From a virus (lineage: Duplodnaviria > Caudoviricetes): 63,083 nucleotides of DNA. Below are positions 233 through 29,813 of this stretch, one piece after another. Position 1 is the stretch's first letter. Each line of letters opens with the position of its first letter. The DNA lies in the IMG/VR virus record IMGVR_UViG_3300030376_004411, positions 1 to 63,083 of that record. One strand, 5' to 3'. Both the position numbers and the translations under genes were made by a program. Below the pieces are notes generated by a model. The model did not search any database and was not told the DNA's origin. It saw only the letters and a program-made list of their open reading frames with translations.

Positions 233-272
233 TCACGCAGTCAGCTCGGATATCCCCAACCGAGCGTTTAGC

Positions 273-2740: not shown

Positions 2741-2840
2741 CAGAGCTATATAAAGTTATCTAAACATATGTATAGCCAGCAATTGTTTATAGCATCTATG
2801 CTATATAGTATATGTATAATAGAGCTATAGTTTATTATTG

Positions 2841-2856
2841 ACAAAGTCTTTATATA
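2841..2856 (+). promoter_or_regulatory. Archaeal BRE/TATA promoter, probably leaderless
   Basis: ACAAAG..TTTATATA ending 22 nt before ATG 2879. Confidence 0.65.
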
Positions 2857-2878
2857 TCTTCTTGAGCAAATAAATTGT

Positions 2879-3832
2879 ATGGGTCAAAATGATTATGGTG
2901 CAATTAATGTTATTTCCGACGAAGAAAGGGAGGCTTTAGGTTTGAGTGGCCCTTCTAGACCTGACGAAGAGGAAGGTGTATTCGAACAGATTGGTAAAAC
3001 AGCTGATAAAATCGGGGAGACAAAACTAGGCCAAAAGATAGGTTCAATACTTACTGTGTTTATACTCGCGATGTTTGGTAGTGGTAATGTTGACCTTGGT
3101 CAGTTTAGTGATATATGGGGTGACGAGGATGAACCGGCAATAAAGGGAGGATGCACAGACCCTACTGCAATAAATTACAAAGCTGATGCAGACTTTGACA
3201 ACGGCAGTTGTGTATTTCCCCCGCCAGTTATCTACGGATGTACTAATCCGGAAGCCGACAACTATAACTCGGCGGCTACCCACGACAATGGACGATGTCA
3301 GTTTTTAGGTGGACCAGTTGATAACGGAACCCACAATGAAACACAAACGAATGAGACTGTTTACGGATGTATGGATTTCGACGCATTGAACTATAATGAC
3401 CGTGCAGAAGAGGATGACGGGTCTTGTGAATACGAGGAGTACGATTGTACACCTAACTCAACTTATTTTTATGATGGATTAGAATACGGAAACTATTCTA
3501 GAGAATATAACACTTTGAATATTACTGTGGATATTGATACAGACTGTGACCAAGAGGCACTGCCCGTGATGGTAGGGTATGACGTAGGACATATCAAAGT
3601 GGTAGACAACGAAACCGTGTGGAACGGTTATATGTGGAACGATTACTTTTTCAATGTCACAGGTTGGGAAGGTAATGAGTACAATCTTACATCCGGCCCA
3701 GAATGGTTTACTGAACCATACACTGGGTGGTATATGATGTATGTCAATTTGTATGCAGACTGGGGAAGAAACGGTACTTACGAATATGTAGATTATTTCT
3801 TAATAAATAATATTGTATTGGAGGAGGAATGA
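2879..3832 (+). CDS. Membrane-anchored acidic protein with GCTD/GCMD-xxA-xNY repeats
   Basis: Hydrophobic segment IGSILTVFILAMFG; three repeats GCTDPTAINY..DNGSC, GCTNPEADNY..DNGRC, GCMDFDALNY..DDGSC; many sequons. Confidence 0.8.
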   Translation: MGQNDYGAINVISDEEREALGLSGPSRPDEEEGVFEQIGKTADKIGETKLGQKIGSILTVFILAMFGSGNVDLGQFSDIWGDEDEPAIKGGCTDPTAINYKADADFDNGSCVFPPPVIYGCTNPEADNYNSAATHDNGRCQFLGGPVDNGTHNETQTNETVYGCMDFDALNYNDRAEEDDGSCEYEEYDCTPNSTYFYDGLEYGNYSREYNTLNITVDIDTDCDQEALPVMVGYDVGHIKVVDNETVWNGYMWNDYFFNVTGWEGNEYNLTSGPEWFTEPYTGWYMMYVNLYADWGRNGTYEYVDYFLINNIVLEEE

Positions 3833-5892: not shown

Positions 5893-6245
5893 AAGAATCA
5901 GTTCGAGAGTACGAAAGTAGACTCAGACAACGTGTTGGTGAAGGAGAATATGAACGTCATAAAGAACTTGTTATACTTCTGGCACGAAATCTTGCTATTG
6001 AAGACTTGCTTTGGCAAGAAATTCTTATATCTATTCGGGATGTTGACGCTCGAACAGAGTTATTGCGACAACGCAACACAATTGTTAAGGATATTCATAC
6101 TGAGTTCCGCGCTCTTAATATTGAAATACCTACATTGGTAGAACAAAAGACCGAAAATTTTATGAACTTCCTAGGAGATTTAGAAGAAGATGATACCAGT
6201 AAAGAACCAGAAAGAAATGAAAGCAGCTCTGACGGGTCAGAATAG
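5886..6245 (+). CDS. Putative terminase small subunit
   Basis: 119-aa helical protein overlapping the terminase large subunit; positional call. Confidence 0.5.
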   Translation: MVEESVREYESRLRQRVGEGEYERHKELVILLARNLAIEDLLWQEILISIRDVDARTELLRQRNTIVKDIHTEFRALNIEIPTLVEQKTENFMNFLGDLEEDDTSKEPERNESSSDGSE

Positions 6246-7869
6246 ATTTGACTCGCAAAATTTAGAGAAGTTTTTCGAAGAAATACGCAAACATCCTAAG
6301 AAAATGGAAAAGTTAGTGCGAACTTTCTGTGAAACGTACCTTTTAGATGCAAAACAACGTCCTTTACGTGTTAGACCACTACAAATGAAGATTATTGTAC
6401 AATCTTTGACATATCCTGATGGAAATTCTGAAAAACACCGTAAATTAGCTATATTAGCCCCAAGAGGTAGTGGTAAATCGTGGGCATTGTCAATTGCAGT
6501 CGTTATTTTTATGTTTTTTAAGAGATTCAGAGACCTTGTGTTCGTTTTAGCTCCCACAGAGGACCAAGCCGCCCTGATTTTCAATTATGTGTACAGACAT
6601 TTTAAAGATAATACATTTTTAGATTCCTTAGTAGATAATTATAAACTACATAACAAACCGCATATCAAAATGCGAGGCGGTACTATCTTGCGTCGGGCGC
6701 CGGTGGCGCCCTCCAATCAGGGACAATCTATTCGTGGGCAGCACCCAACACTTTTAATAGTTGACGAGTCACCTTTAATATCAGATGAGTTGTTCATCGA
6801 TAATGTAGAGCCAGCGATAGTCGCAAACAAAGCACCGTTTATCAATCTCGGTACTCCTAAAAGTAAGGAGAATCATATGTATCGATATTTATTTGATGAG
6901 GGGTATGCAGATACTTTCAGTCGTTTGCACTTTACTTGGAAAGATGCCATCATAAAAGGGGAAGCTTACAGTCCACCATATGATGAAGAAGATATGTTGA
7001 ATAAAATGTTAGAATGGGGAGAGGACTCCCTGCACTGGAAAACAGAATACGAATGTGAATTTGTGGAGAGTATATCTAATGTATTTACACCAACCGGACT
7101 ACGAGAGTGTTTTGATGACTACCAACTACTTACCCCCGAAAACGCTGACGAATCAGGAGAGACAGGTACAAATAATACTGTGGCTGTTGACATTGGGAAA
7201 TCTGTTAATTCTACTGTTATTAGTGTATGGAGGACTGAAAAAGGACCTGACAACAATATTGCACGATTATTATATTTGGAAGAAATCGGACCTAAGTCAG
7301 GGGGGCACGATATACCTTATCAAAGAAGTCGTATTATGGACGTCGCTGTTGATTTTAATGCGGCTCGCGTTATTATCGATGCTACAGGTATTGGAGGTGC
7401 TGTCGAACAAGAAATAAGAATGGCTTGTATACCATTGAGTATACATTTCATACCGTTCGTATTTACTGGAGGAGCTAAAGGCAGTAAAACATATGCTTAC
7501 AGGGATTTTGTATCTTTTGTTCAGCAGGGTCTTATCAAGGTACCTGACATCGAAAGACAAGAAGGAACCGCCAAAAAACTAATGTGGAAGTGGTATCGTG
7601 AACACGTAGACTTAGAATACGTTATGGATGCCTCTCAGAAAACAGAGAAAATATCTGCACCATCAAACAAACACGATGATTATTGTGATAGTAGTGTATT
7701 AGGTGTACACGCAGCTTTATCTATGTTACCAGCAGACAGTATGTTAGGTACAATCAATGTTAGAAAGCGTGGTACAAGAAAACCAGTAAGTAGATACGGC
7801 GGAGGCGGTATAACTACTAGCGGAAGACGTCGTTCAGCTCCAAAAAAGCGATTTATGCGTGGTATTTGA
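6190..7869 (+). CDS. terL: Terminase large subunit
   Basis: Walker A APRGSGKS, Walker B LLIVDES, LGTP motif, nuclease AVDIG..IDATGIG..HDDYCDS. Confidence 0.95.
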   Translation: MIPVKNQKEMKAALTGQNRFDSQNLEKFFEEIRKHPKKMEKLVRTFCETYLLDAKQRPLRVRPLQMKIIVQSLTYPDGNSEKHRKLAILAPRGSGKSWALSIAVVIFMFFKRFRDLVFVLAPTEDQAALIFNYVYRHFKDNTFLDSLVDNYKLHNKPHIKMRGGTILRRAPVAPSNQGQSIRGQHPTLLIVDESPLISDELFIDNVEPAIVANKAPFINLGTPKSKENHMYRYLFDEGYADTFSRLHFTWKDAIIKGEAYSPPYDEEDMLNKMLEWGEDSLHWKTEYECEFVESISNVFTPTGLRECFDDYQLLTPENADESGETGTNNTVAVDIGKSVNSTVISVWRTEKGPDNNIARLLYLEEIGPKSGGHDIPYQRSRIMDVAVDFNAARVIIDATGIGGAVEQEIRMACIPLSIHFIPFVFTGGAKGSKTYAYRDFVSFVQQGLIKVPDIERQEGTAKKLMWKWYREHVDLEYVMDASQKTEKISAPSNKHDDYCDSSVLGVHAALSMLPADSMLGTINVRKRGTRKPVSRYGGGGITTSGRRRSAPKKRFMRGI

Positions 7870-7914: not shown

Positions 7915-9180
7915 ATGGGTCTAGCCGACAGGATACGCCGCGTTTTTGCTACGGTGGGTTCTAATCCTAACACTCCAAAGGATGAACCACGTGGTTTTGG
8001 CGCAGGTGTAATAAGAAGGTTGAAACTTACCAATAATTATGGTAACAGGAATTATGAGCAGCACATAGGTGACAATAGAACCTATATGAATGTTTATTTA
8101 TCAGACCCGATTGTACGTTCTTTGATTGACCTCCCTTGTTTATATGCAGTAAAGGATGGTTTTGATATTGTTACTGAAGACGAAAAACTAAGAGAAGAAG
8201 TAACAAAGATGTTTGTTGATATCAATATTGATATGACAATCTACGGTTGGCTACGCAACGCTCGAATCTTTGGTTCAGGTTATTTAGAATGGACTGGAGA
8301 CAACCTAGTTCTACGCTCTTCACAAAATATGTACGTGAAGAGAAACGAACACGGCCAATTAATGTATTATTATCAGAATATAGGAAACGACGCAGAAGAC
8401 GTTCGTTTTGACCCTGATGAAATTGTAGAACTACAAAACAATCCTTTTGATGATTACGCTTATGGTTTATCTGATATACATACTATTTTATACTTAGTAG
8501 ACCTAAAAGATTATGCAGAGCGAGACATTGGAGCAGCTCTGAATAAATATGCGGTATCACGTTTCGACATTTCCTGTGGGTTGCCTGATATGCCCTATGG
8601 CCCTGATAAGATTAACGAAATTGTTGATGCATTTAATTCTTTAGAACCCGGTGAAGATATAATTCACGGTAATGATATACAAATAAAAGAAATAGAAGGT
8701 ACAAATAGAGCCTTTGAATATGGTAAGTATACAGATGATATACTAGATAAAATACATATAGCTCTTAAAGTACCAAGAACTATGTTTACACAACCGGAGC
8801 AAGCTCGCCCGGTTTTTGAACCTTACGTTAAATATTTACAAAAAGCAGTAGAGTCTGCTATTAATTCACAACTAATGCCACAGTTTGGAGACGATGTTAA
8901 ATTTGCTTTCAGACACTTGAATGTAGATGATGCATTCACAAAGGCAAAAACCGATATGATATATCTATCAGAAGGTGTCTTGGCACCTAGTGAAGTTAGA
9001 AAGGAGAGAGGTTTAGATGCTGAAGGAGTAGTAGAAAAACAACCAACTGCCGCTGAAGTAAATATTTCTGGTGGAAAAGACCAAGACAAAATAGAAGAGT
9101 CTCAAAGAACAGAACAGAGATTATCTAAAAACCAGACAGGGAAACGCACTGAAGAAGAGGTTGTGGAGGTAGTAGCGTGA
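7915..9180 (+). CDS. Portal protein
   Basis: Follows terminase; 421 aa; YGLSDI, IHIALKVP and PSEVRKERGL portal-like motifs. Confidence 0.9.
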   Translation: MGLADRIRRVFATVGSNPNTPKDEPRGFGAGVIRRLKLTNNYGNRNYEQHIGDNRTYMNVYLSDPIVRSLIDLPCLYAVKDGFDIVTEDEKLREEVTKMFVDINIDMTIYGWLRNARIFGSGYLEWTGDNLVLRSSQNMYVKRNEHGQLMYYYQNIGNDAEDVRFDPDEIVELQNNPFDDYAYGLSDIHTILYLVDLKDYAERDIGAALNKYAVSRFDISCGLPDMPYGPDKINEIVDAFNSLEPGEDIIHGNDIQIKEIEGTNRAFEYGKYTDDILDKIHIALKVPRTMFTQPEQARPVFEPYVKYLQKAVESAINSQLMPQFGDDVKFAFRHLNVDDAFTKAKTDMIYLSEGVLAPSEVRKERGLDAEGVVEKQPTAAEVNISGGKDQDKIEESQRTEQRLSKNQTGKRTEEEVVEVVA

Positions 9181-10454: not shown

Positions 10455-10826
10455 ATGGCAACAGAAATATTAGTAAATGATGGTGGAGCACCAGCACGAA
10501 TATTACCATTTTTAATCCACGCTACTGTAGCAGCAGGAGACCCCCTACAGATACACTCTAACGGGAAAGTCAAACCAGCAGCAACCAGTGGAGCAGCCTG
10601 TGTTGGAGTAGCTTTAACAGCTGCATCAGGCTTGGATAATATGTGTAACGTGATAACTGGACACGGAGTCGTCGCTAACGTAAACGGACAAGGAAGCATT
10701 GTCGCAGGTTCTATCCTGTCAGCAGATGCAACTGGTAAGTTCGGTATTGCAGCAAGCGCCGACCAGAAAGAAGCTATTGCACTTGAGGCAATCAGCGGAG
10801 GAGTAGTGAAGGTCGTCCTTCTCTAA
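10455..10826 (+). CDS. Capsid decoration/cement protein
   Basis: Small Gly/Ala-rich beta protein (AGD..VGVA..G..GSIL..GK..AIALEA) directly before the capsid gene. Confidence 0.7.
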   Translation: MATEILVNDGGAPARILPFLIHATVAAGDPLQIHSNGKVKPAATSGAACVGVALTAASGLDNMCNVITGHGVVANVNGQGSIVAGSILSADATGKFGIAASADQKEAIALEAISGGVVKVVLL

Positions 10827-10840
10827 AGAGGTGAATAAAT

Positions 10841-11929
10841 ATGGTAACAACACAAGATGGAATACTAACATCCAATAACACTGGTTCATTCACTGCAACA
10901 ACTGGAGGAACCGGAGAGAGAGTTCTAGTAGATTACAAAGACGCTTTGCAAGACTACAAAGTAACTGACCTTCCAGCACTTCAGATGTTTACAGAAACAA
11001 TGACCACTGATACTGGTGGAGATATAGATTTAACATTCGCAATGCCTTCTATGAACTTAGAAAGAATTGATGAAGGAAGCACCCCTCAATACCAACACAC
11101 AAAGATGCGCTCCGAGAGAGTAGCAGTCAGAGAGTGGGGTATTGCAGTAGGTGTAACCCGCAGAATGATAGAAGATTCAAGATTCAACGAAGTTGAACTT
11201 GCACTAAACGAAGCACGAAGAGCAGTTGACAGACATATGTCTAAACACGTTATCTACGCATTGTTCGGTATTGGAGATGCAGACCTACAAACAGGTATCA
11301 GCAACGTAAGTATCGACAAACAAGATGCAGAAGTTGGCGCTAGTGGAATCAACGATTTCACAGTCAATCTCTACGGTGGTTTCATTGGTAGTGGTACAGC
11401 AGCTCAAGCAGCAGCTGGAGATGGACGCTACGTCGACTACGGTTTAACCGCAGCAGCAGACTTAGCCCGAACTCACTACAGAGAAGCAGCCACAAACGGA
11501 ACTGTTACACTAAGTGACTTGACCACAGCTATCGAGTTAATCGGACAACACGGTTACAACGCAGATACTGTAGTTATTTCACCAAAGCACTACAAAACTC
11601 TATTAGACTTAGCAGACTTTACTGCAGCAGTCGGAGCAGCTAACGCAGCTATCAGAGGAGGAACAGATGCTTTGGGTGGTATCAGAGACACCGCATCCAG
11701 TGGATTAGTTGGTTCATTGTTTGGATTGAACATTTATGTCAATGCATACATCCCACCAACAGCTTATGGTGTGTTTGATATGTCAGCAAAACCAATGGCT
11801 TACGTCGAAAGACGTCCAATGACTGTCGAGGAAGCAAACCCCGGTTTCGGAATCGTCGGTTCATATATGTCAATGAGATATGGATTGAAAGTTACAAAAC
11901 CAGAAACTGGTGTAATTTTCTACGATTAG
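10841..11929 (+). CDS. Major capsid protein (HK97 fold)
   Basis: 362 aa; IDEG..P, GIAVGVTRRMIEDS, GSLFGLNIYV, MRYGLKV; GAGGTGA SD. Confidence 0.9.
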   Translation: MVTTQDGILTSNNTGSFTATTGGTGERVLVDYKDALQDYKVTDLPALQMFTETMTTDTGGDIDLTFAMPSMNLERIDEGSTPQYQHTKMRSERVAVREWGIAVGVTRRMIEDSRFNEVELALNEARRAVDRHMSKHVIYALFGIGDADLQTGISNVSIDKQDAEVGASGINDFTVNLYGGFIGSGTAAQAAAGDGRYVDYGLTAAADLARTHYREAATNGTVTLSDLTTAIELIGQHGYNADTVVISPKHYKTLLDLADFTAAVGAANAAIRGGTDALGGIRDTASSGLVGSLFGLNIYVNAYIPPTAYGVFDMSAKPMAYVERRPMTVEEANPGFGIVGSYMSMRYGLKVTKPETGVIFYD

Positions 11930-11944
11930 ATATCTAGATAATCA

Positions 11945-12002
11945 ACTCTTCGGAGTAGGTTCACAGTTGGGGGTCTGTATAAAAACCCCCACAATCTTTT
12001 TT
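11945..12002 (+). terminator. Hairpins and T-run after the capsid gene
   Basis: ACTC-TTCG-GAGT, then TGGGGGT..ACCCCCA stem, then TTTTTT. Confidence 0.6.
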
Positions 12003-12028
12003 AACCTACTTAGCGTAGGTATATTATA

Positions 12029-15000
12029 ATGCCACTATCACGAAAAATACTACCACACGGTAAAGCAAAAATACAGTCAGGAGTCTCAGGAGGCTCTAAT
12101 GTAACTAGTTTAAATTTAGATGGCACAACTTTACAATTAAATCAATCTAACAGTCAACCACAAAGGACTGTAAATTTAAACAGTCTTTCTGGTACACCCG
12201 CAGGTAATGATACAGAACTGCAATTTAACAACAATGGTTCATTTGGCGGAACAGATGACTTAAAGTGGGATGGTAGTAAACTAAAACTTGGAGATTCTGC
12301 TGATACTGGTAATTATTTCGAAGTTCAAGGTAGTGATTCTGAAAATACCTATGATGTCTTGGTTGGAAGAAGAAGATTCCCTAGAATATCTTTAAACGAC
12401 AGAGGCTCCTACACTATGCAGATATGGGCACTTGGTAGCGAATTAAGGTTCGGTACGAGCGCAGGTAGTAACACTACAGCTGCTTTTGTAGTAAGGAGTG
12501 GTAGTGTTGGGTCCGTAGCGACAGCTGGTGCATATACATATGGTGTCTTCAACGTAGGTACGTCTGATAGTATCAACTCTAGTAAGGTAACAATAGTAGA
12601 TACTGCGAAACCACTAACGCTAGCTTATGATGGTAGTAATTATGCATCTTTAAAAGTAAGTAGTGGAGGTGTGTTAACAGTAGCTACTAATATGGCTAAT
12701 GCAGGGGTAGCAGATAGATTTTTGTTTGATGGTAATCATTTTAGAGGAACTGATACTAACGCTCCTTCGATGCGTAACGAAACGCCTTCAGATACTAACC
12801 CCGTTTTTACTTTTAATAATGACGTTGATACAGGGATGGGTAGAGCTGCAGCTGATACTTTATCTTTTATTGCAGCAGGAGCTGAACAATTACGTATAGC
12901 AGATAATGTAATTACACTTGGTGATGGTGTGGTTTTAGCACCCCACGCAAGTGACAACTTTACAATTGACTCTCCAAATGGTATAATATTAGATGGTACA
13001 TCAGCAGCTAATGGTGTACAGTATCACGACGGCGGCCTTGAGATAATGAGAATTTCTAACTCAAGTAGTAATCCAGTTATCAGAACTATGGTAGATGCTA
13101 AGGATATGATTTTCCAACAGTTCGATGGTACTGAAATTGTAAGATTCAAAGATAATTTAGACGTTGAAGTTGCTGGTAATTTAAAAATAACTCCAGATAA
13201 TAAACTATACTTAGGAGATGACGAGTTTATAGATGTTAACACTTCTTCTTCACCAAACAGGATGGATTTTCATATAGCAAATCTTCCTCGATTACACTTA
13301 GATTCGGGTACATTATTTTCGGGACAATCTGGAGGCCCTTCGATGGACTTGACTCCAAGTTCTGGTATTGCAAATTATGGGTTCGTGGGTGACACTGACA
13401 CCGGTATGTCTAGAACGGGTGCAGATACACTTGTATTGATGACAGGTGGTACAAACGCAATCACAATAGATAGTAGTCAGAATGTTGTAATACCAGCTAA
13501 TTTGACGGTACAAGGAACAACAACTACAATCGACAGTACAACCCTCAGTGTTAAAGACAAGAACATTGAGATGGGTGTAGTTAGTAGTCCTACAGATGTA
13601 ACGGCTGATGGTGGAGGTATCACATTAAAAGGAACTACCGATAAAACATTTAACTGGGTAGATTCTACAGACAGTTGGACTGCATCAGAACATATTGAAC
13701 TTGCATCTGGTAAATCATTTAGGATTAACGGTAACAACGTTTTGAATCAAACAACTTTAGGTTCTACAGTTGTAGGTTCTTCATTAACAAGTGTTGGAAC
13801 ATTAACCGCTTTGACGGGAGGCACAGGAGACTTAAACTGGGATAGTAATACTCTATTTGTAGACTCTTCTGAAAACAGAGTAGGTATAGGTACAAATTCA
13901 CCAGATGTATTATTTGATGTTAGTGGGTCAGCGGTCATACAGAGCCTTCGTATTAATGCTAATGACGGTGACAGGATGCGATTGTTTAGAAGAGCTGATA
14001 ATGAAATGGTGATTGCTTCTGAGTCAGCATCACTATATTTAAATTCTGCATTTAATGGTATTTATTTTGAAGGAGACTCAAGTGCCGTAAAAATGCGTTT
14101 GACTGGTGATGGTAACTTAGGTATAGGCACAACTGGACCTGATAAACGACTTCATATACACGGTGCAACAGACACAGCTTTCAAAATGAGCAATGCAGGT
14201 ACTGGAGAAGGTGGTTCTGATGGTTTTGAAATACTTCAATCAAATACTGGAGAAATAGTACTTAAAAATAGAGAAAGTGCTGCTTTAAAATTTGACACAG
14301 CCGGTACTAATGCAATGACGATAGATAGTAGTCAAGTTACTACTTTTATTAACACCCCAGTTGTTGGAACAATGACTTCAAGTGATAACAGCACTAAAGC
14401 AGCTTCTACAGCTTTTGTTAAAGCTCAATCATACGGAACAGGAACCATTGGTGGTACAGCTACCTCAGGTCGGATTCCTTTTGGTGATGGAAATAACTCA
14501 ATAACAAGTGATGCTAATCTAACTTATAATGGAAGTAGTTTTGAAGTGTTAGTCACATCATCTATAGGACACGGTGGTACTAAAAGAACTAAATTTCAAC
14601 ATAACAACGAAGTTAATTATTATAGTGATGGTTCAGAAACTTCTGGTACAGTTTACTATCAATATAGAGGTGGAGATTTTAATATAGCTCGAAATGCTAT
14701 ACACGTTAAAGCTTATAATGACGGCTCTCGTCCGAGATATGTAGGTATAGGCACAACTTCACCTGAAAGAAAATTACACATAATGACAGCTAGTGCCGGT
14801 AGTCCGGGTTACAGTACTTATGCTAATATGATATTAGAATCTGATGACCATAGTTATTTTCAATTTTCTTCTCCATCTAACAAAGTACAAGGTATAAACT
14901 TTGGAGATGGAAACGATAATGCAGGTGCTATTTATTATGACCACGCATCTGATTATATGAGATTTTTTGCAGGTGCTTCAGAAAGAATGCGTATAGATTC

Positions 15001-18000
15001 TGCTGGTAAAGTAGGTATAGGCACAACTTCACCAAACAGTAAAATGACAGTTCAAGGTGACCTTGACATTCCACGCGGTTCTAGATTTAGAGCAGGTTCT
15101 ACTGACAGTAATCAAGGTATAGATATTTATCACAACAACGATGGTAGTTCATCATTTAATGGTAATGTCGTATTCGAAGGTAGGTCTTCTGGTGGAGATG
15201 TCGTTTTCCGTAATTTAGACCACGGGCAAGATTATAAATTTTACGCAGAGAACGATTCTGGTACAGAACAGTTAATAATGAAGATTGACGGTACTGAAGC
15301 AGCTGTGGGTATAGGAGAAGGAAGTACTGGATTAACTACAGCTAATGGTGCGTATTTACACGTTACTGGTTCTTCAAACTTACTTGCTAATTTCTTATCA
15401 TCAGATGGTATAGGAGAAATACGAGTAGGAGATAGTTCAAAGTATACTAGATTATTAACAGCTGGTAATCAATTTAAGATAATGCCTTTTGATGGTGTTG
15501 AGTTGATGGTACTTGATGGTAGTACAGAAAAGGTTGGTATAGGTACAAATGCACCCGGTGAAAAGCTAGATGTGAGAGGTAAAATATTAGTAGACCAGTA
15601 TTTAAGATTACAAAGAAACACAAGCACCAACGGATTAAATTTAACTGATAGTGGAGGTAACGCAGTCCCTGTGCACACTAGAGCAGGATTCTTTGGTGAT
15701 AGTTATTCAATGACTCCAGATATTGGTGAGGTTATATTATATAGTTCAACCACTGGTTCTTCAACTGCTACAGCTGGTATGGTTACATTCGCAAGTAGAA
15801 ATGATGCTGGAACTCATATACCTTATGCTGAAATAGAAGGTATAGCATTCGATGATACTGCTAGTGGCGAAGATGGTCATATAGTATTTAGAGTAGAAAA
15901 AGCTAGCACTATGACTGAACAGATGAGGTTAACAGAAACTGGATTAGGTATAGGCACAACTTCACCTGCTTATGAATTAGATGTTAGCTCTGGACATATG
16001 AACGCTGCAAGACTCTATCTAAATGACGCTAACAATTACATAATGGGTGACTCTGAAACTATGTATCTTAGAGCTCACAATGATATGTATTTCAATATAG
16101 ATACACCAAATGATTCTACAACTAGACATTTCATATGGAGAGCCAATACTTCTTCTGAAAAAATGAGATTAGGAGAAGATGGTATACTTGAAGTAAAATC
16201 TGGAGGTAAAGTAGGTATAGGTACAGCTGCACCTAATGTTGAATTAGATGTAGCTGGTGATGCAAGAATAAGAGGTTCCAATAAACTATACTTTGGAGAT
16301 ACAGATACTACAGAATATATATCTACTAACGGAACTGACGATTTAAGAATACACGCTTCAGACACTGTTTTATTTGATGGTGATGGTAAGAGTATATTTA
16401 GAACTCCTTATTTAGCTTTAGAAACTAGTGCAGCATCTGAAAAGATGAGATTCGATATAGATAATGGAAGATTTGGTATAGGCACAAATTCACCTTCTAC
16501 TAAATTAGATATCATAAGCACAACGGAACAAGTAAGGTTTGGTTATGACAGTAGTAATTACTTATCGTTTAATGTAGACAGTACTGGTAATACTGTAATA
16601 CAAGCTAAAACAGGTAACTTAGAATTAAAAACTGATACATCATCTCACGACGTTAGAGTTGATTCAAAAGGTAAATTTAGAGTAGATTTGGGAGATTCTA
16701 ATGGTGGGCACTATGCACGTATAAGAGGTACTAGTAACACCCCAGTATTGATGGCTAAGTCTAATGGTTTAGTAGGTATAGCTACAGAGTCACCCAATGA
16801 AACATTAACAGTTGAAGGAGTGTTATCTTTAGATGAAACTTCTGCTCCATCAGCTACTTCTGGTTATGGTAAAATATACGTTAAGTCTTCAGACAGTAAA
16901 CTATACTTTATGAATGATTCTGGAACTGAGACAGATTTAACAGCAGGAGGAGGAAGCAGTGTCAGTTTTGGTAGTGACAATCAAATACCATTTACTAATT
17001 CAGGGGGCGATGACTTCGATTATTCTGCTAATTTAACATTTGATGGAAGTACTCTTATCACTGACGCTGATATTCGAATATTAGATGGTGAAAAATTATT
17101 ACTTGGTACTGACAGTAATTTTCAAATTTATGGTAGTGCCGGTTCTACAAAATACATAACTACACTTTCAGAACAATTATTAATATGGAATCAAGATTCT
17201 TCTAGTGCACCAATCAAATTACAAGCTACAGATACATCTAACGGTATTCAATTTAATATTGCAGGAACTGAAAAAGGTAGATTTACATCTACAGGTTTAG
17301 GTATAGGTACAACTGCACCTTCTTACAAATTAGATGTTAATGGGGACGCAAATGTTTCAAGTGTTCTATACTTAGGTGATTCCGATACTAAATTATATAG
17401 AAGTTCTAATGATTTATATATAAGAGCTACTTCTGATATACTTTTAAATGACACAGGTGGTAATGTAGGTGTAGGAATAGACCCTACTTCTAAATTACAC
17501 GTCAAAGGTGAATTAGATATTCAAAGTGGTAATCAAACTATTCTTATGGGAGCTGGTAATAGTTCAACATCTAGAAATGATAATGCTCTAAAACTAGCTA
17601 GAGTTGGATTAGCACATTATGAGAATGATGAAGCAGCAGCAGCTATGATATATGCATCTTCAGATGGAACTGATAATGCAGTAGCTATCGGTGGTGGAAC
17701 ATCTGGTATGAATGCAGCCACTAAATTACAATTTTTTACAGCTGCTAATGATACAACTACTGAAGGCACAGAAAGAATGCGTATAGATTCAGCTGGTAAA
17801 GTAGGTATAGGTACATCTGCACCTAACAATACTTTAGAAGTAGCTGGGGTTATTCGTGGTACCAATTATATATGGCAAAAACAAGATGGTTCACCCGGAA
17901 TATTGGTTGGGAATGGTGGTAATGCTGACATTTACTATGATGGTACTGATATGCATATTAATTCCCAAAGAGGCGGTTCTGGTGATTTATTAATTAATAC

Positions 18001-18628
18001 TGGTGGTGGTAATGTAGGTATAGGCACAAATTCACCTGCTGATAAATTAAATATAAACACCGGAGTAGGAACATTCGATTTTAGAGATTATAATATGACT
18101 TATAGTACCTCTTTAGGTATTAGAGCAGAAGCTGGATACTTAGGATTGGTTACAGAAGCAGCTGATGATGTATTTATTTCTACTAGCGGATTTGCTAATA
18201 AAAGATTAGTTGTAAAATCAGATGGTGATATAGGTATAGGCACAACTTCACCTTCTACTAAATTAAATATTGTTGGAACTGGATATGGAGGTAATACCAC
18301 TGGTTCTGCACTATTTCAACTATATGGTACAGATACTGTAGGACCCACTTTAACTTTTAGGAACAATCAATCAGAATATGGTTCTATATATTATGGAGAT
18401 ACTGGCGCTTGGATACCCCAAGGTACAATGGGATTTATTCAACACAGGGATGGTGCCTCTTCAGATGTAAAAATGGTTATAGCGTCTGGTGGTAAAGTAG
18501 GTATAGGTACAACTACACCAGCCCAATATTTACACGTAAAATCTGGTGATACTGACCAAGTATTATACGATTCGCTACTGATACATTTAAATTTTATACT
18601 GATTCAGGATATTCTAACAATCCTTTAA
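12029..18628 (+). CDS. Giant fibre/receptor-binding protein with GIGTxxP repeats; frameshifted near the 3' end
   Basis: About 16 (V/L)GIGTxxP..L modules, Gly/Ser/Thr rich; last ~19 aa look out of frame. Confidence 0.85.
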   Translation: MPLSRKILPHGKAKIQSGVSGGSNVTSLNLDGTTLQLNQSNSQPQRTVNLNSLSGTPAGNDTELQFNNNGSFGGTDDLKWDGSKLKLGDSADTGNYFEVQGSDSENTYDVLVGRRRFPRISLNDRGSYTMQIWALGSELRFGTSAGSNTTAAFVVRSGSVGSVATAGAYTYGVFNVGTSDSINSSKVTIVDTAKPLTLAYDGSNYASLKVSSGGVLTVATNMANAGVADRFLFDGNHFRGTDTNAPSMRNETPSDTNPVFTFNNDVDTGMGRAAADTLSFIAAGAEQLRIADNVITLGDGVVLAPHASDNFTIDSPNGIILDGTSAANGVQYHDGGLEIMRISNSSSNPVIRTMVDAKDMIFQQFDGTEIVRFKDNLDVEVAGNLKITPDNKLYLGDDEFIDVNTSSSPNRMDFHIANLPRLHLDSGTLFSGQSGGPSMDLTPSSGIANYGFVGDTDTGMSRTGADTLVLMTGGTNAITIDSSQNVVIPANLTVQGTTTTIDSTTLSVKDKNIEMGVVSSPTDVTADGGGITLKGTTDKTFNWVDSTDSWTASEHIELASGKSFRINGNNVLNQTTLGSTVVGSSLTSVGTLTALTGGTGDLNWDSNTLFVDSSENRVGIGTNSPDVLFDVSGSAVIQSLRINANDGDRMRLFRRADNEMVIASESASLYLNSAFNGIYFEGDSSAVKMRLTGDGNLGIGTTGPDKRLHIHGATDTAFKMSNAGTGEGGSDGFEILQSNTGEIVLKNRESAALKFDTAGTNAMTIDSSQVTTFINTPVVGTMTSSDNSTKAASTAFVKAQSYGTGTIGGTATSGRIPFGDGNNSITSDANLTYNGSSFEVLVTSSIGHGGTKRTKFQHNNEVNYYSDGSETSGTVYYQYRGGDFNIARNAIHVKAYNDGSRPRYVGIGTTSPERKLHIMTASAGSPGYSTYANMILESDDHSYFQFSSPSNKVQGINFGDGNDNAGAIYYDHASDYMRFFAGASERMRIDSAGKVGIGTTSPNSKMTVQGDLDIPRGSRFRAGSTDSNQGIDIYHNNDGSSSFNGNVVFEGRSSGGDVVFRNLDHGQDYKFYAENDSGTEQLIMKIDGTEAAVGIGEGSTGLTTANGAYLHVTGSSNLLANFLSSDGIGEIRVGDSSKYTRLLTAGNQFKIMPFDGVELMVLDGSTEKVGIGTNAPGEKLDVRGKILVDQYLRLQRNTSTNGLNLTDSGGNAVPVHTRAGFFGDSYSMTPDIGEVILYSSTTGSSTATAGMVTFASRNDAGTHIPYAEIEGIAFDDTASGEDGHIVFRVEKASTMTEQMRLTETGLGIGTTSPAYELDVSSGHMNAARLYLNDANNYIMGDSETMYLRAHNDMYFNIDTPNDSTTRHFIWRANTSSEKMRLGEDGILEVKSGGKVGIGTAAPNVELDVAGDARIRGSNKLYFGDTDTTEYISTNGTDDLRIHASDTVLFDGDGKSIFRTPYLALETSAASEKMRFDIDNGRFGIGTNSPSTKLDIISTTEQVRFGYDSSNYLSFNVDSTGNTVIQAKTGNLELKTDTSSHDVRVDSKGKFRVDLGDSNGGHYARIRGTSNTPVLMAKSNGLVGIATESPNETLTVEGVLSLDETSAPSATSGYGKIYVKSSDSKLYFMNDSGTETDLTAGGGSSVSFGSDNQIPFTNSGGDDFDYSANLTFDGSTLITDADIRILDGEKLLLGTDSNFQIYGSAGSTKYITTLSEQLLIWNQDSSSAPIKLQATDTSNGIQFNIAGTEKGRFTSTGLGIGTTAPSYKLDVNGDANVSSVLYLGDSDTKLYRSSNDLYIRATSDILLNDTGGNVGVGIDPTSKLHVKGELDIQSGNQTILMGAGNSSTSRNDNALKLARVGLAHYENDEAAAAMIYASSDGTDNAVAIGGGTSGMNAATKLQFFTAANDTTTEGTERMRIDSAGKVGIGTSAPNNTLEVAGVIRGTNYIWQKQDGSPGILVGNGGNADIYYDGTDMHINSQRGGSGDLLINTGGGNVGIGTNSPADKLNINTGVGTFDFRDYNMTYSTSLGIRAEAGYLGLVTEAADDVFISTSGFANKRLVVKSDGDIGIGTTSPSTKLNIVGTGYGGNTTGSALFQLYGTDTVGPTLTFRNNQSEYGSIYYGDTGAWIPQGTMGFIQHRDGASSDVKMVIASGGKVGIGTTTPAQYLHVKSGDTDQVLYDSLLIHLNFILIQDILTIL

Positions 18629-19086
18629 GTTTAAAAGGTGTTGATGTAGGTATAGGCACAAATTCACCTGCTGGTAAATTACACGTTGTAGGAACCACAA
18701 AAATAGAGGGTGGTATACTTAAAAATTACACAGAAGCTCTTTATATGTATGATGCAGCAGGAGGATTGTATGGTGCTGCGGCTCAAGTTTCAACAGATGG
18801 TAACTTTTGTCTAATTAAACCAGAAACAGGACCGGGTGTTGGAAGTATACCAGTTTATTTACCAGAAGGTACAGCAGCTAAGGTCGGGTTTGAGACAACA
18901 ATTGTTAACGATGTATCAAACAATCCAGCTAGTACCTTAACAGTTTCAGTAGCACAAGGTACTTCAAATGTAATTTATGAAGGTTCTAGTAACAGTGCAT
19001 CCTCTACAGTTACAATAGGTACCTATAAAGGAGCTAACAAAACGTTCCTTTTAGTGGATACTGGTATCTGGATAGTCAAGGCTTAG
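18556..19086 (+). CDS. Out-of-frame C-terminal continuation of the fibre
   Basis: Frame open from 18556, well before ATG 18745, reading IIRFATDTFKFY..VGIGTNSPAGKLHVVG. Confidence 0.7.
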   Translation, partial: PSIIRFATDTFKFYTDSGYSNNPLSLKGVDVGIGTNSPAGKLHVVGTTKIEGGILKNYTEALYMYDAAGGLYGAAAQVSTDGNFCLIKPETGPGVGSIPVYLPEGTAAKVGFETTIVNDVSNNPASTLTVSVAQGTSNVIYEGSSNSASSTVTIGTYKGANKTFLLVDTGIWIVKA

Positions 19087-19087
19087 A

Positions 19088-19101
19088 GAAACCTTTAAAT
19101 A
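19088..19101 (+). promoter_or_regulatory. BRE/TATA promoter
   Basis: GAAACCTTTAAATA ending 22 nt before ATG 19124. Confidence 0.65.
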
Positions 19102-19334: not shown

Positions 19335-19823
19335 ATGGCAGTAACAAGTATAACAACACTCGCTGGACTGAGAGACCGTATAAGACTCTTAGCAGGTATA
19401 GAACAAGAAGAACTAGACAACGAAACTCTAGACATTTTAATTAGTATGTCTACTGAGTGGTTTACTGAACAGACTAGTTTGACTTACGACGCTACTGACC
19501 CTATGGACAACGATGCTGCATATGATAATGCAGTAGCATATTATACTTGTTATTTAGCATCTATAGCACAGAATGGTATGGGTATAGAAAGAATACAAGT
19601 TGGTGACCTAGCAGTTTATTATGAAGATGATGCATATATACACTTCAAAGAACTAGCAGACCAACAGTTAGTCATGAAACAAAGCCTAAGTATAAAAACG
19701 ACAGGATATAATGCAGACCCATATCTTGGTAGAGTCAACTGGGATGAGAATGTCACTGGAGTCAATGCTACTAAGGATATGTATCCAGCACCACGTGGTA
19801 CTAGAGGCAGTGGAGGATATTAA
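19335..19823 (+). CDS. Putative head-tail adaptor
   Basis: LRDRIRLLAG..AVAYYTCYLA..IQVGDLAVYY; position after head genes. Confidence 0.6.
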   Translation: MAVTSITTLAGLRDRIRLLAGIEQEELDNETLDILISMSTEWFTEQTSLTYDATDPMDNDAAYDNAVAYYTCYLASIAQNGMGIERIQVGDLAVYYEDDAYIHFKELADQQLVMKQSLSIKTTGYNADPYLGRVNWDENVTGVNATKDMYPAPRGTRGSGGY

Positions 19824-25867: not shown

Positions 25868-26698
25868 ATGTTTATAATAAATGCAAGCTTACCCCGTGCG
25901 GGGTCAACTTTATTTTCGAATATTATGGGTAACCACCCAGATATTTATGCAAGCCCTACCAGCTCACTAGTTGAACTAGTGTATGGAGGACATTATGCTT
26001 GGTCAGAATCTTTGGACACTGCAACCGAAGGTATTGACCCAGATAATAAGTATTATACTGATAAAAGAGCCGAATCTGTGAAAAGTTTTCTAAACAAAGG
26101 TATTGAAGTATACTATGATGAAGTAACAGATAAAAAACATGTTTTAGATAAAGGGCGTAAGTGGATATATTCGCCTAGTTTTGTGAAAGAAATATTACCA
26201 GACACAACTATTTTTTGTATGATTAGACATCCCTTTGATATATTTGCTAGTTTCGAAAAGATATACAGAACAACACCTATGATTAGTAAAAATGATGAAG
26301 GAAATACAGTTTTAGAAAGGGTAAATCATTGGTGGTTAACCGTACCGTCATTTAGAGTTTTTGATAAAATTGCAGCGTCAATTGAAATGAGAGACAATAA
26401 TGTGTATTTCATACCTTATGAGCTATTAACAGAAGAACCAGATAAGACGATGACCGAAATCTATAAATACTTAGGTATCGTAGATTATAAACACGATTTT
26501 AGTAACATTAAACAAGTTACGCATGAGACTGATGTACAAAGTATATATGGTACTCATAAAATCAGACCCGAAGTAAAACCTATAAAACAAAACCCTGTAG
26601 AAATACTAGGGGTAGAAGCATGCCTAGCTATACAACAAAAGCTAGGTTGGTTTATGGATTATTTTGGATACGAAAAATTAGAACAGGAGAAAGAATAA
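25868..26698 (+). CDS. PAPS-dependent sulfotransferase
   Basis: 5'-PSB SLPRAGSTL, LDK, 3'-PB IRHPFDIFASF, YELLTEEP..IYKYLG. Confidence 0.85.
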   Translation: MFIINASLPRAGSTLFSNIMGNHPDIYASPTSSLVELVYGGHYAWSESLDTATEGIDPDNKYYTDKRAESVKSFLNKGIEVYYDEVTDKKHVLDKGRKWIYSPSFVKEILPDTTIFCMIRHPFDIFASFEKIYRTTPMISKNDEGNTVLERVNHWWLTVPSFRVFDKIAASIEMRDNNVYFIPYELLTEEPDKTMTEIYKYLGIVDYKHDFSNIKQVTHETDVQSIYGTHKIRPEVKPIKQNPVEILGVEACLAIQQKLGWFMDYFGYEKLEQEKE

Positions 26699-27356: not shown

Positions 27357-29813
27357 ATGGGTTTCGCAGGACAAGTATTTGCAGCAAGAGTCGCAATCGG
27401 TTTAGCCGTTCCCAGCCCACAGGCTATGCAACAAGCTGGTGGTTTATTATCTACTGGCGCTTCTAGTATATTTGAGAAGATAGCTCTAATGAGACAACAA
27501 GCCTCAGCTAAGAATAGAGGTATTGCTTTATCAGAACAACAAAAATCTGCAGGACTTTTTCAATCTAATTTAAAACGGACTAACGCTTTGATGCAAGGAG
27601 AGGTAGCACGAGGTCTAAAAAACCTTCAAGACTCCGGTCGAGCTGTAGCAGGTTCATTTGCTGACAGCGAAGGAAAAGTAAAAGAAGGGTTTTCTGGTCT
27701 TAAAAAGGCTACTGCAGACACACAACTTGGTAAAGACCTATTTAAGGGTGTTAATCAAGGTGTAAAACCACTAGAGCGCATGACTCGTTTAGTATCTAAT
27801 CTAGCAAAGATGGATGCAAGGGGTCGTCGTGAAGTATTACAATTACAAAAAGAACAACAACAAGCCGCTAAAGATGAGTTTATTGTTAATGCAAAGAGAT
27901 TAAAACAAATAGATGAAATGATTTCTGCAGAACTCAATAATAAAAGAAAAGGTGGTAAAGCACAAGAGAAAAGATTAAACGCCTTAAAGAAAGAAAGAGA
28001 CGAGCTAGAAAAACTTACTAAAAAAAGTGAAAAAAGATTAAGAGTAGAAGAGAAAAATACACGTAATCTAAAAACTGGTATGAAAACGGCTGAACAAGCC
28101 CGCGGTAAGTTTGACCAATTGGCTACATCTGCGGCCAAATTCGGTTCCAAAGTCGCTTCAGCAGCAAATCACGTCAGACAAGGATTTAATACCGCTTTAC
28201 GTAACTCTGTGGCTATCGCAACAGCCTTCTACTACAAGATTAATCAGAACACACAAGCTCTCATAGAGTTTGAGCGTGAATTATTAAACGCAAACTCTGT
28301 TTTCAACTTAACAAATTCAGAACTTTTTAACGTCGGTGACACCATAATGCAATTTGGACAGAAATTTGGTATCGAAATCCAAAACGGTGCTACTGGATTG
28401 TACCAACTTGCATCGGCTGGTGTAAGCGCCAACGAAGCATTATCAATATTACCAGAGACATTAAAGTTATCTATGGCTGTACAGGGTGACCACAATACTA
28501 TCTCTAAGCTAACAGCTCAGACATTGTTTGGTTTTGAGATGCAAATGGACCAAGCAGCCGAAGTTACAGACAAATTCGCATTTGCTATTCAGAAGTCTTT
28601 GATTGAGTATCAAGATTTATCAAGCGCTGTTAAGTTCGCTTTACCTTTCTTTACCTCTACAGGGCAAAGCTTAGACCAGCTGTTGGGGGCACTAGCTGTG
28701 CTGACTAATAGAGCTTTAGAGGCTGGTATTGCAGGTCGTGGTTTAAGACAAGCTGTGGCTGAATTCGCTGAAAGTGCTATGGATGCTGAAGTAGGGTTCC
28801 GTAAGATGGGTGTTGAGATTCTAAACGCAGAAGGTGAGATGAAACAACTAACTGAGATAGCAGCTAACTTTGCTGAGGTAGTAGGTCCTGAGACAGCATC
28901 TAATACAGAACTATTAACTACTTTAATACAAGATTTGAACGTTCGTGGTGCTACTGCATTTATTCACTTAGTTCAGGCTTCTGATGAATTTACTGAAGCT
29001 GTGGAAGGAAGTGTAAACGCAGGCGGTCAACTAGATGATATGGTTCGTATACAGAACGCATCTATATCAGCACAAATACAAATACTTAAAAACAATGTAG
29101 ATGCTATATTTTTGTTTAGAGATGCGGCTTTTGAAGGAACAGAGTTTATGAATGGGTTTCACAAAGCAGTAGTTGAATTCGTCGAGAATTTTAGTGGTTT
29201 ATTTGTTACAACCATGGAAGATGGTACATATCAGTTAACTGAGTTTGGTATGGAACTACACAATGTAGCTATTGACGCTGTTAAAGAATTAGGTAAAGTT
29301 ATGGAAATGTTAGTTGAAATTATAGTTGAGTTCTCAAAAGAAGGTTTAATTAGTGCTGATATGATTAAACTGATGGTTATGCCAATGAAAATCTTTTTAG
29401 AAGTTATAAACGCAATAGGTCCTGATATGCTTAAATTTATTATTTATTTCAAGATGTTAAATAGTGTTCTTCCAATAACACAATTGATGATGATGGGGGC
29501 AGCTAGAAGTGCAATGGCTTTTAAATTCGCAATGGCTGGTACTGGTTTAGGTGCACTACTAATGGGAGGAGTAATGCTCAAAAGATTCTTAGATAGTAGG
29601 CAGTCTGGTGGTTATGTATCACCAATGGCTGGTGGAGGTATGCCTATGGGTGGTCGGCCATATTTAGTGGGTGAACAAGGGCCAGAGCTATTTATACCAG
29701 ACAGTTCAGGCAAAATCTTAAATACTATGCAAACCCAAGAATCTATAGGAAGTGGAAAGACTGTGATGAAAAACGTTTCTATAGGTATTGATTCATTCGG
29801 AGGATTAGTATGA
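27357..29813 (+). CDS. Tail tape measure protein (TP901-like core)
   Basis: Helical; GLYQLASAG, LAVLTNRALEAGIAGRGLR; C-terminal GRPYLVGEQGPELFIP. Confidence 0.9.
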   Translation: MGFAGQVFAARVAIGLAVPSPQAMQQAGGLLSTGASSIFEKIALMRQQASAKNRGIALSEQQKSAGLFQSNLKRTNALMQGEVARGLKNLQDSGRAVAGSFADSEGKVKEGFSGLKKATADTQLGKDLFKGVNQGVKPLERMTRLVSNLAKMDARGRREVLQLQKEQQQAAKDEFIVNAKRLKQIDEMISAELNNKRKGGKAQEKRLNALKKERDELEKLTKKSEKRLRVEEKNTRNLKTGMKTAEQARGKFDQLATSAAKFGSKVASAANHVRQGFNTALRNSVAIATAFYYKINQNTQALIEFERELLNANSVFNLTNSELFNVGDTIMQFGQKFGIEIQNGATGLYQLASAGVSANEALSILPETLKLSMAVQGDHNTISKLTAQTLFGFEMQMDQAAEVTDKFAFAIQKSLIEYQDLSSAVKFALPFFTSTGQSLDQLLGALAVLTNRALEAGIAGRGLRQAVAEFAESAMDAEVGFRKMGVEILNAEGEMKQLTEIAANFAEVVGPETASNTELLTTLIQDLNVRGATAFIHLVQASDEFTEAVEGSVNAGGQLDDMVRIQNASISAQIQILKNNVDAIFLFRDAAFEGTEFMNGFHKAVVEFVENFSGLFVTTMEDGTYQLTEFGMELHNVAIDAVKELGKVMEMLVEIIVEFSKEGLISADMIKLMVMPMKIFLEVINAIGPDMLKFIIYFKMLNSVLPITQLMMMGAARSAMAFKFAMAGTGLGALLMGGVMLKRFLDSRQSGGYVSPMAGGGMPMGGRPYLVGEQGPELFIPDSSGKILNTMQTQESIGSGKTVMKNVSIGIDSFGGLV

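Follow-up and report, generated by a model that had tools for sequence, protein, structure and literature searches.

Modules of a giant phage fibre gene are probably exchanged at letter-uniform DNA linkers

How can a phage keep rebuilding a very long fibre without a diversity-generating retroelement (DGR) or an invertase? This question is raised by the virus record IMGVR_UViG_3300030376_004411 (Caudoviricetes) of IMG/VR, which we analysed over its whole length of 63,083 bases and refer to as the window (completeness estimate 90%, G+C 38%). The window holds a putative fibre gene in which divergent modules are joined by short, near-identical DNA linkers, and an earlier reading made from the letters alone (the sequence-only reading) had proposed that these linkers act as recombination points at which modules are shuffled, added or deleted. 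Our analysis points in the same direction. With a probability of roughly 75%, the fibre modules are exchanged at letter-uniform DNA linkers by homology-guided recombination.

The linkers themselves are plainly visible. Searching with GGTATAGGYACAAMTKCACC and allowing up to 3 mismatches, we obtained 15 matches, all on the + strand, where 0.05 were expected (standard deviation 0.22, maximum 1; 100 dinucleotide shuffles, 0 of which reached 15). The 14 positions named in the sequence-only reading are all present, 10 of them without a mismatch and 4 with a single one, and its exact-word counts proved right: GGTATAGGCACAACTTCACC occurs four times (14744, 15014, 15947, 18233) and GGTATAGGCACAAATTCACC three times (16475, 18017, 18649). 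The codons GGT-ATA-GGY-ACA, which it had ascribed to every linker, are found in 14 of the 14 named copies. We add two copies to that list, a variant at 16775 and a degenerate one at 17468. The earlier placement of all linkers within one gene stood for 13 of the 14, which lie in the frame of the open reading frame (ORF) 12029..18628, as the copy at 16775 does too; the copy at 18649 lies past the stop, in the -1 frame. The linker peptide is G-I-G-T-x-x-P, embedded in the wider motif (K/N)-V-G-I-G-T-(T/N)-(S/A)-P-x-x-K-L-x-V. Between linkers the sequence is divergent, as had been stated (mean column identity 33% in the junction alignment A1). The near-duplicate reported earlier is also real, though its length is not about 43 nt but 63 nt at 90% identity (14979-15041 versus 17769-17831); it ends within a linker, as expected of a conversion tract. 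The gene and its linkers are laid out as follows, where L### labels denote related viral loci and, further below, X# labels denote sequencing runs and M## labels the fibre modules between linkers.

12029..19086, + strand: whole fibre gene as read here, made up of the ORF 12029..18628 (2199 aa as assembled) and a -1-frame continuation with its stop at 19084-19086
13883..13902, + strand: linker 1 (VGIGTNSP); L045 identity stops within it
14120..14139, + strand: linker 2 (LGIGTTGP); L040 identity (94%) begins 9 nt upstream
14744..14763, + strand: linker 3 (VGIGTTSP); L046 identity (90%) stops 15 nt downstream
15014..15033, + strand: linker 4 (VGIGTTSP), at the 3' end of the near-duplicate element 14979-15041
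15536..15555, + strand: linker 5 (VGIGTNAP), from the linker search
15947..15966, + strand: linker 6 (LGIGTTSP); L050 identity (88%) begins within it
16214..16233, + strand: linker 7 (VGIGTAAP); L050 and L042 identity stops within it, L047 identity begins 13 nt upstream
16475..16494, + strand: linker 8 (FGIGTNSP); L047 identity (89%) stops 1 nt downstream
16775..16794, + strand: linker 9, a variant (VGIATESP; GGT ATA GCT ACA, GIAT) with 3 mismatches
17300..17319, + strand: linker 10 (LGIGTTAP), from the linker search
17468..17487, + strand: degenerate linker (VGVGIDPT; GGT GTA GGA ATA, GVGI), in row 17450-17492 of repeat family D1
17804..17823, + strand: linker 11 (VGIGTSAP), at the 3' end of the near-duplicate element 17769-17831; L077 identity (91%) begins 4 nt upstream
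18017..18036, + strand: linker 12 (VGIGTNSP); L042 (86%) and L050 (77%) identity begins 10-13 nt upstream
18233..18252, + strand: linker 13 (IGIGTTSP); L050 identity stops 1 nt and L042 identity 25 nt downstream
18500..18519, + strand: linker 14 (VGIGTTTP), from the linker search
18649..18668, + strand: linker 15 (VGIGTNSP), in the -1 frame; it has the gene's longest exact repeat (30 nt) in common with the copy at 18017

Could ordinary codon bias produce this uniformity? Outside the linkers, the gene uses GGT for 60% of Gly, ATA for 59% of Ile, ACA for 40% of Thr, TCA for 22% of Ser and GGC for only 6% of Gly codons (6-7% in the genome). Across the 15 linker copies, the first Gly is GGT, the Ile is ATA and the Thr is ACA in 15/15 each; the second Gly is GGC in 8, GGT in 6 and GCT (Ala) in 1, and Ser at the seventh linker codon is TCA in 9 of 9 cases. 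Wherever two copies share a residue at a column of V-G-I-G-T-x-x-P, their codons agree in a fraction of 0.821 (632 comparisons), compared with 0.415±0.037 when codons are drawn from the gene's own usage (z 10.9; 3000 draws, maximum 0.554, 0/3000 reaching 0.821). The excess is weaker in the flanks, with z 2.7 for the seven codons upstream and z 2.4 for the six codons downstream. Codon bias, the competing explanation that the sequence-only reading had itself raised, thus does not account for the linker identity.

The same spelling recurs in related phages. In 42 distinct GIGT copies from 8 loci, which had been retrieved with peptides from outside the linkers, 39 have ATA, 39 have ACA and 28 have GGC as the second Gly, with backgrounds of 49%, 41% and 8%. 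A codon-blind IMG/VR scan for VGIGTxxPxxKLxV returned at least 139 stretches with at least 172 distinct copies; among the matches listed, 82 motif copies with G+C below 40% use ATA in 35%, ACA in 39% and GGC as the second Gly in 6%, all near their backgrounds. Since copies of the motif in IMG/VR are written with ordinary codons, the peptide does not force the spelling, which is a property of this gene pool. In prokaryote genomes, the exact linker 20-mer was found in 4 stretches, which we estimate to be little above chance for a collection of that size.

One IMG/VR contig with 4 motif copies (L114) has a uniform spelling of its own, GTC GGG ATT GGT ACG AGT TCG (z 6.0 against its codon usage), a hint that linker "dialects" vary between gene pools.

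A need at the level of translation or RNA could also fix codons, for example if a pause at the rare GGC aided segment folding or trimer register and module exchange were incidental. GGC is indeed rare (6-7% of Gly) and yet serves as the second Gly in 8/15 copies here and 28/42 in relatives. However, a pause predicts no exact spelling, and ATA, ACA and TCA are fixed as well though their synonyms are equally or more common, while the 82 low-G+C copies in other viral contigs, again among the matches listed, have GGC in 6% and ATA in 35%. The RNA folds of four linker regions differ from one another (z -0.1 to -2.7), and 0 Rfam families matched within the fibre gene. We consider this explanation quite unlikely.

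If modules move at the linkers, related phages should differ in blocks that end there. We retrieved 43 related loci, many of whose contigs end inside the gene. Many of the 43 share the capsid gene and the first ~50 fibre codons with the window and are therefore related phages' versions of this locus. Hardly any of their module content is that of the window. DNA matches in L041, L043, L044, L045 and L075 run from the capsid gene to about 12180: the N-terminus stays with the upstream capsid gene, and its first ~54 codons are probably the attachment end.

12029..12190, + strand: conserved N-terminal ~54 codons (L041 residues 1-54, 89%; L075 residues 1-59, 71%; L043 residues 1-89, 65%)

Beyond this point the order of modules differs from locus to locus. 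L040, with 96% DNA identity over the capsid gene and the N-terminal 1.8 kb, continues from its N-terminal part with an M12-like module (59%) and then M02 (92%). M06 (81% at the amino-acid level) adjoins an M12-like module in L050, M12 (82%) lies upstream of M05 (82%) in L042, opposite to the window order, and L047, with 17 linkers, has M07 (91% amino-acid identity) as its sole module in common. Module order is thus not constant across relatives, in keeping with the proposed shuffling. Single modules are shared at 86-94% DNA identity, namely M02 (L040, L046), M06 (L050), M07 (L047), M11 (L077) and M12 (L042), whereas the capsid genes of L042, L046, L047, L050 and L077 are 75-81% identical to the window's; in these five phages, modules were therefore exchanged after the backbones had diverged.

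The breakpoints of this mosaic cluster at the linkers, as the sequence-only reading had supposed. Identity profiles drop from ~90% to ~50% at the flanking linkers, and in 13 junction alignments the switch occurs within the linker or at most about 10 nt away, without indels. Of the 24 ends of high-scoring segment pairs (HSPs) in the module region, contig ends left out, a linker is no more than 15 nt away for 14 (15.5% expected, P 1.9e-6) and no more than 30 nt away for 19 (24.7% expected, P 3e-8), a closeness inflated somewhat by the fact that HSPs extend into the conserved linker by themselves. This extension effect has no bearing on the missing homology of the neighbouring modules.

In-register joins are also observed in natural populations. 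Part of the gene is held by 20 of the 24 sequencing runs listed, from 13 studies, almost all labelled marine metagenomes. Logan contigs of four runs (X2, X5, X6 and X7) were mapped at 88% likeness, with 15 of the 31 joints and 24 of the 250 loose ends listed; low or absent contig cover of parts of the gene in X5-X7 was not counted as evidence. In X2, seven contig pieces are identical to the window from 10800 to 17557 and are followed downstream by other module joins, such as 17785>18224 (9 letters between, depth 43) and 17780>18007 (13 letters between). Joints with known inserted letters comprise, among the matches listed, 12 rows that reduce to 10 distinct joints, and all 10 keep the frame; these may reflect other fibre genes with modules at least 88% alike and are not proof of variants of the same phage. 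The net length equals the exact linker-start-to-linker-start distance in 7 of these 10. Three linker-to-linker deletions remove 213 nt (M11), 429 nt (M11+M12) and 845 nt (M11 to M14), and four joins go back, placing M06 after M10, M10 after M13, M03 after M05 and M06 after M09. As for the remaining joints, one is off by one codon and ends at the degenerate linker, and two lie elsewhere. In X2, depth reaches 172 (bin 14752-15055) and 79 in the bins that contain the 63-nt element, against about 30 elsewhere, so this element must be common to many other sequences in the sample.

Short-read assembly at repeated sequence invites the suspicion that mosaics and joints alike are chimeric contigs built at the linkers. 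Many of the relatives' contigs do end in the gene, those of X5 and X7 stop at 18552, where the frame breaks, and many joints have short sides. Nevertheless, exact repeats in the gene do not exceed 30 nt, which is less than the 31-letter words of Logan contigs and makes chimeric assembly at the linkers unlikely; other assemblers use words longer than 31 letters. Consistent differences in module adjacency are found across independent IMG/VR contigs that come from different samples, and 10/10 of the listed joints with known inserts are in frame. An assembly artefact is therefore a very improbable source of the pattern.

The junctions might instead have been sorted by selection. According to this explanation, illegitimate recombination occurs anywhere, only chimeras joined at domain boundaries fold, and the DNA identity of the linkers is a by-product of protein constraint and codon bias. 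The linker peptide is a structurally important capping-loop peptide (see below), so junctions elsewhere may be lethal, and some breakpoints occur at other conserved peptide motifs (13806, 14420/16941). Against this stand the codon identity of 0.82 versus 0.415 (z 10.9), with the rare GGC in 8/15 copies, and the ordinary codons used for the same peptide elsewhere. Moreover, 13/13 junctions are in register without indels, and 7/10 contig joints have exact linker-to-linker distances. We judge such a filter unlikely as the source of the linker identity and return to homology-guided exchange.

In the mechanism that we propose, the gene would encode a fibre of ~2350 residues whose shaft would be a chain of ~15 beta-helix segments, each opening with V-G-I-G-T-x-x-P-x-x-K-L-x-V. 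The DNA of this motif, about 20-26 nt, is kept almost letter-identical in this phage and its relatives, and homology-guided recombination would be able to pair every linker in frame with every other. Exchange would take place between co-infecting relatives, or within one genome through replication slippage or unequal crossing-over. The products would be in-frame chimeras in which whole segments, and also the tip domain, have been exchanged, lost, doubled or put in a new order, and repeated crossovers, together with conversion tracts ending in linkers, would keep the spelling uniform by concerted evolution. Both the recombination pathway and the direction of cause and effect between exchange and linker uniformity are what we infer: the uniform spelling may be a selected cause of exchange or its consequence, and the present data are compatible with either. 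Any consequence for adsorption or host range, which the sequence-only reading had included, is conjectural.

No dedicated machinery came to light, in agreement with the earlier claim that diversification proceeds without a DGR or invertase. Among the 71 ORF translations scanned (8 + 24 + 39) there was no reverse transcriptase, invertase or integrase, and neither Pfam nor PHROGs identified a tyrosine or serine recombinase among them. The variation consists of whole modules and not of the adenine-specific substitutions of a DGR, and 15/15 linker copies lie on one strand, all in direct orientation, unlike the sites of a shufflon or invertase. A site-specific system of another kind, in which a shufflon-like recombinase or a linker-recognising nuclease cuts and rejoins at the linkers, would nonetheless suit a core, GGTATAGGYACA, that is unchanged in 14/15 strong copies, and crossovers confined to about 20-30 nt; the window does encode a PD-(D/E)XK (Cas4/RecB-like) nuclease (1790-2740) and a RecU-type resolvase (55108-55629). 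Yet there are 0 inverted copies, no tyrosine or serine recombinase occurs in the 39 further ORFs or the structural ORFs, and breakpoints at other conserved motifs fit general homology-guided exchange. We therefore hold a dedicated site-specific system to be highly unlikely.

What, then, does the linker do in the protein? Searching the whole ORF against PDB sequences with phmmer matched only Bdellovibrio fibre proteins (8OND, 7e-7), and a profile of the 15 junctions (A1) matched 8OND at 3e-22 (3 stretches), 8OML at 3e-14 and 8OJN at 1e-11 (2 stretches), as well as 8OL4 and 8ON4, with E-values ranging to 7.5e-5. These structures belong to the mosaic adhesive trimer (MAT) fibres, or fibres of MAT/S74 type (Bd2133, Bd1334, Bd3182, Bd2439), which the portion of Caulton et al. 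2024 used here (PMC10769870) describes as intertwined trimeric beta-helix segments. Capping loops with the consensus V-G-G/N-pi-x-x-P-x-x-x-L sit on the segment edges (PMC10769870, same portion). Assuming that the 8OJN chain starts at residue 632, the two stretches matched there (chain residues 11-47 and 121-142) cover the loops R656-H669 and F752-H765. The phage gene thus carries the capping-loop motif of MAT fibres, with 15 copies of VGIGTxxPxxKL. We read each module as one putative beta-helix segment with the linker as its capping loop, and infer by homology that the phage fibre would share the trimeric fold. The capping-loop role explains why the amino acids are conserved, but not why the synonymous positions are.

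The likeness to MAT fibres, namely the same recurring motif and the match of the junction profile to their structures, has its limits. As far as the consulted portion of the paper describes them, bacterial MATs are surface fibres with a signal peptide and a conserved beta-rich N-terminal domain of ~130 aa, whereas the N-terminus of the phage protein is conserved instead with the capsid-adjacent genes of related phages. According to the same portion (PMC10769870), tips are exchanged between MAT paralogues, and 13/21 MATs end in an S74 chaperone-protease. Pfam matched no family, S74 included, at E-values up to 10 in either the 2199-aa ORF or the tail of 176 aa in the -1 frame, and the phage protein would accordingly be an "NS74"-like form with another tip. 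That portion of the paper contains no mention of DNA-level conservation of the motif or of recombination at it. It also places a glycan-binding cleft between capping loops in Bd3182, T5 LTF and K1F (PMC10769870); if each segment between two capping loops forms such a cleft, the fibre would amount to a series of lectin-like cassettes whose order can change.

Several observations weigh against exchange at the linkers as we propose it. Exact identity through the linkers is short, with a median of 11 nt, at least 20 nt in 13/105 pairs and a maximum of 30 nt. Runs of this length are at, below or near the lower limit for efficient exchange by RecA-type enzymes, while phage annealing recombinases would be able to use them; the window ORF scan recognised no protein for single-strand annealing. 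Uniform spelling is found only in some other genes, the 7 loci with at least 3 copies having z 6.0, 3.2, 2.3, 2.2, 0.7, 0.2 and -0.6. Many contig joints have a shorter side below 30 nt at 88% likeness, and such joints often stem from other organisms or repeats. The protein model gave no usable fold, with single-sequence AlphaFold2 reaching pLDDT 35.1 (all-beta) for residues 1295-1500 and 35.7 for the tip, and the window's own allele is frameshifted, so this copy may be defective or misassembled. The HSP statistics carry the inflation described above, and for 5/24 HSP ends the nearest linker is over 30 nt away. L040 and L041, the two closest relatives, and a contig of X6 break at 13806, 77 nt upstream of linker 1: L040 is 100% identical up to 13805 and then collapses, L041 stops at the same place, and the X6 joint is 13806>15389. 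An in-frame joint seen in both X5 and X6, 14420>16941 (12 letters between, net 2508 nt), uses the copies of another motif, G..IPF...L.YD, and not linkers, and eliminates all that lies between two of these copies. Exchange here draws on conserved motifs of any kind, with the GIGT linker far ahead of the others in frequency. The two other elements concerned are the following.

13475..13849, + strand: widely conserved block, residues 483-607 (phrog_30158, E 1e-34), with matches in most of L048-L082 and also among structural proteins of cyanophages
14360..14509, + strand: second conserved motif (...GTIGGTATSGRIPFG...) of the G..IPF...L.YD type, with a partner copy at ~16880-17029

The motif ...LGSTVVGSSLTSVGTLT at 13745-13806 closes a block "...SSLTSVGTLT" that is conserved across dozens of viral contigs as well as cyanophage structural proteins. 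The G..IPF...L.YD motif resembles the gene's own N-terminal region (12098-12247), and the giant gene may consist of three fibre units fused head to tail, judging by this similarity.

Segment exchange at conserved motifs of phage fibres has precedents. For motif recombination in T-even phages, the work of Tetart et al. from 1996 and 1998 is said to be the source, as cited by Trojet et al. In T-even gp37/gp38, exchange within or near conserved fibre and adhesin motifs is established, and in gp38 the glycine-rich motifs GRM1-5 separate hypervariable segments (Trojet et al. 2011, PMC3157838, in the sections drawn on here). Like those proteins as the same sections present them, the gene here has variable segments split by short conserved motifs at which breakpoints cluster. 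It differs in the protein family and the motif, VGIGTxxPxxKL being the capping loop of a beta-helix shaft; in having 15-16 copies per gene, with whole shaft segments moving and not loops of one domain; and in that excess synonymous identity is quantified, for an uncultured phage known from its sequence. The mechanism is therefore known in principle, and this fibre gene is a new, unusually clear, many-copy example of it.

A second comparison is offered by tailspikes of E. coli phages, in which DNA motifs of 20, 44 and 95 bp around receptor-binding domains have been proposed as recombination hotspots, although the count of exchange events showed no correlation with motif presence (Pas et al. 2023, PMC10408124, in the parts used here). 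Those motifs resemble the linkers in being short DNA that is more conserved than its surroundings and is proposed to guide the exchange of binding modules between phage genera. On the evidence of those parts, they flank one exchangeable domain and are partly intergenic, whereas the motif here recurs many times inside a single ORF and is where breakpoints are located. The fibre gene also varies among otherwise identical populations (X2 contigs), like the metaviromic islands described in the excerpted text of PMC3909814 as under-recruiting regions of marine phage genomes; such islands are a recruitment pattern and not a mechanism, while here the junctions and the DNA connector are identified. 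Our literature search turned up no publication that treats the GIGT/capping-loop motif as a site of recombination.

This locus offers a quantifiable case of a very long fibre being rebuilt from a shared library of parts without dedicated diversity machinery, and it links a structurally defined capping-loop peptide to a role at the DNA level. A further idea, which we regard as possible but rather doubtful, is that the linker is a shared DNA "connector standard" of a marine-phage exchange community, in which each gene pool has its own spelling, only modules with the local spelling spread, and the spelling is kept by selection on exchangeability and defines the trading partners. The pair of spellings cited for this idea is GGT ATA GGC ACA ACT TCA CC here and GTC GGG ATT GGT ACG AGT TCG in the other contig. 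Shared linker spelling is suggested as a simple predictor of which uncultured phages can trade fibre parts. A practical warning is that genes of this kind break up short-read assemblies, in which they may be put together wrongly or show an apparent frameshift.

The 3' end of the gene illustrates this last point. Frame 0 stops at 18626, and the -1 frame, after its stops at 18547 and 18553, stays open between 18556 and 19086. Because the -1 frame has stops up to 18555 and its peptide is module-like from 18574 onward, where it aligns with the ends of other modules, the frame break is located in 18554-18574. An X6 contig joins 17780 to 18644 with 18 other letters between, so that frame 0 runs continuously into the -1 frame, which contains linker 15 and a domain of ~125 residues. 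On these alignments we interpret the -1 frame as real coding sequence, with the gene running to 19086 and the assembled copy frame-broken. The X5 and X7 contigs end at 18552, which makes this spot also a point of population variation. The break may be an indel, a defective allele or an assembly join, three possibilities with which the contigs are equally compatible.

18554..18574, + strand: -1 frame-shift zone, an apparent indel in the last short module
18709..19086, + strand: putative C-terminal tip domain (~125 aa); compared with the L083 C-terminus, DNA identity is 88% (18709-19101) and protein identity 85%

A programmed -1 frameshift was considered and is not favoured: the T_TTA_AAT heptamer at 18586-18592 has the right frame, but its position is 3' of 18574, from which the -1 peptide is already module-like, and we estimate the chance of such a heptamer in this AT-rich overlap at roughly 1 in 8. 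No slippery heptamer occurs within 18554-18574.

L083 contains an open frame of 1128 codons (positions 1-3384) whose shaft is built of a different repeat, of the N-V-A-I-G-x-x-A-L type; since the tips match on different shafts, the tip moves between unrelated shaft types and is itself, as far as these comparisons indicate, a swappable unit. No Pfam or NCBIfam family was matched by the tip or the 2199-aa ORF, and the ESM Atlas matches to the tip are unnamed viral clusters only.

The gene stands between the capsid gene and a head-tail connector gene, within a structural region that continues with two very large ORFs 3' of the tape-measure gene, both on the + strand.

6190-7869, + strand: terminase
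7915-9180, + strand: portal
10455-10826, + strand: scaffold-like protein
10841-11929, + strand: major capsid protein
19335-19823, + strand: gp6-like head-tail connector
27357-29813, + strand: tape-measure protein

Parts of the gene match "tail fiber protein" families of PHROGs (phrog_9942, 1.5e-53; phrog_18345, 3.3e-52). By this PHROGs label its product is a putative tail fibre, although the gene has capsid and connector genes as neighbours. The label "head decoration protein", carried by a Synechococcus phage S-CBS2 gene with the conserved block, was dropped, as the neighbours of that gene are collagen-like and lysozyme genes and do not discriminate between head and tail. Megablast of the fibre gene against cultured phages gave 0 matches, and the matches of the large terminase to cultured phages are all below 25% identity, so no host could be assigned from the terminase.

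Directly 3' of the tape-measure gene, the 1609-aa ORF 29810-34639 (+ strand) has a C-terminal concanavalin-A-like lectin domain (Laminin_G_3, 7.5e-13). Its product is a candidate tail-tip receptor-binding protein of a more conventional kind than the capsid-adjacent fibre. The window also carries unusual phage cargo: a sulfotransferase within the structural module (25868-26698, + strand) and, on the - strand, an eIF-1A/IF-1 domain protein (49440-49757), a squalene/phytoene synthase domain protein (54378-54977) and a CobT-like VWA protein adjoining a CobS-like AAA+ protein (57115-60749). Finally, the Rfam manA RNA motif (RF01745) is present in full length at 62148-62321 on the - strand, with 67.8 bits against a gathering score of 55.2.

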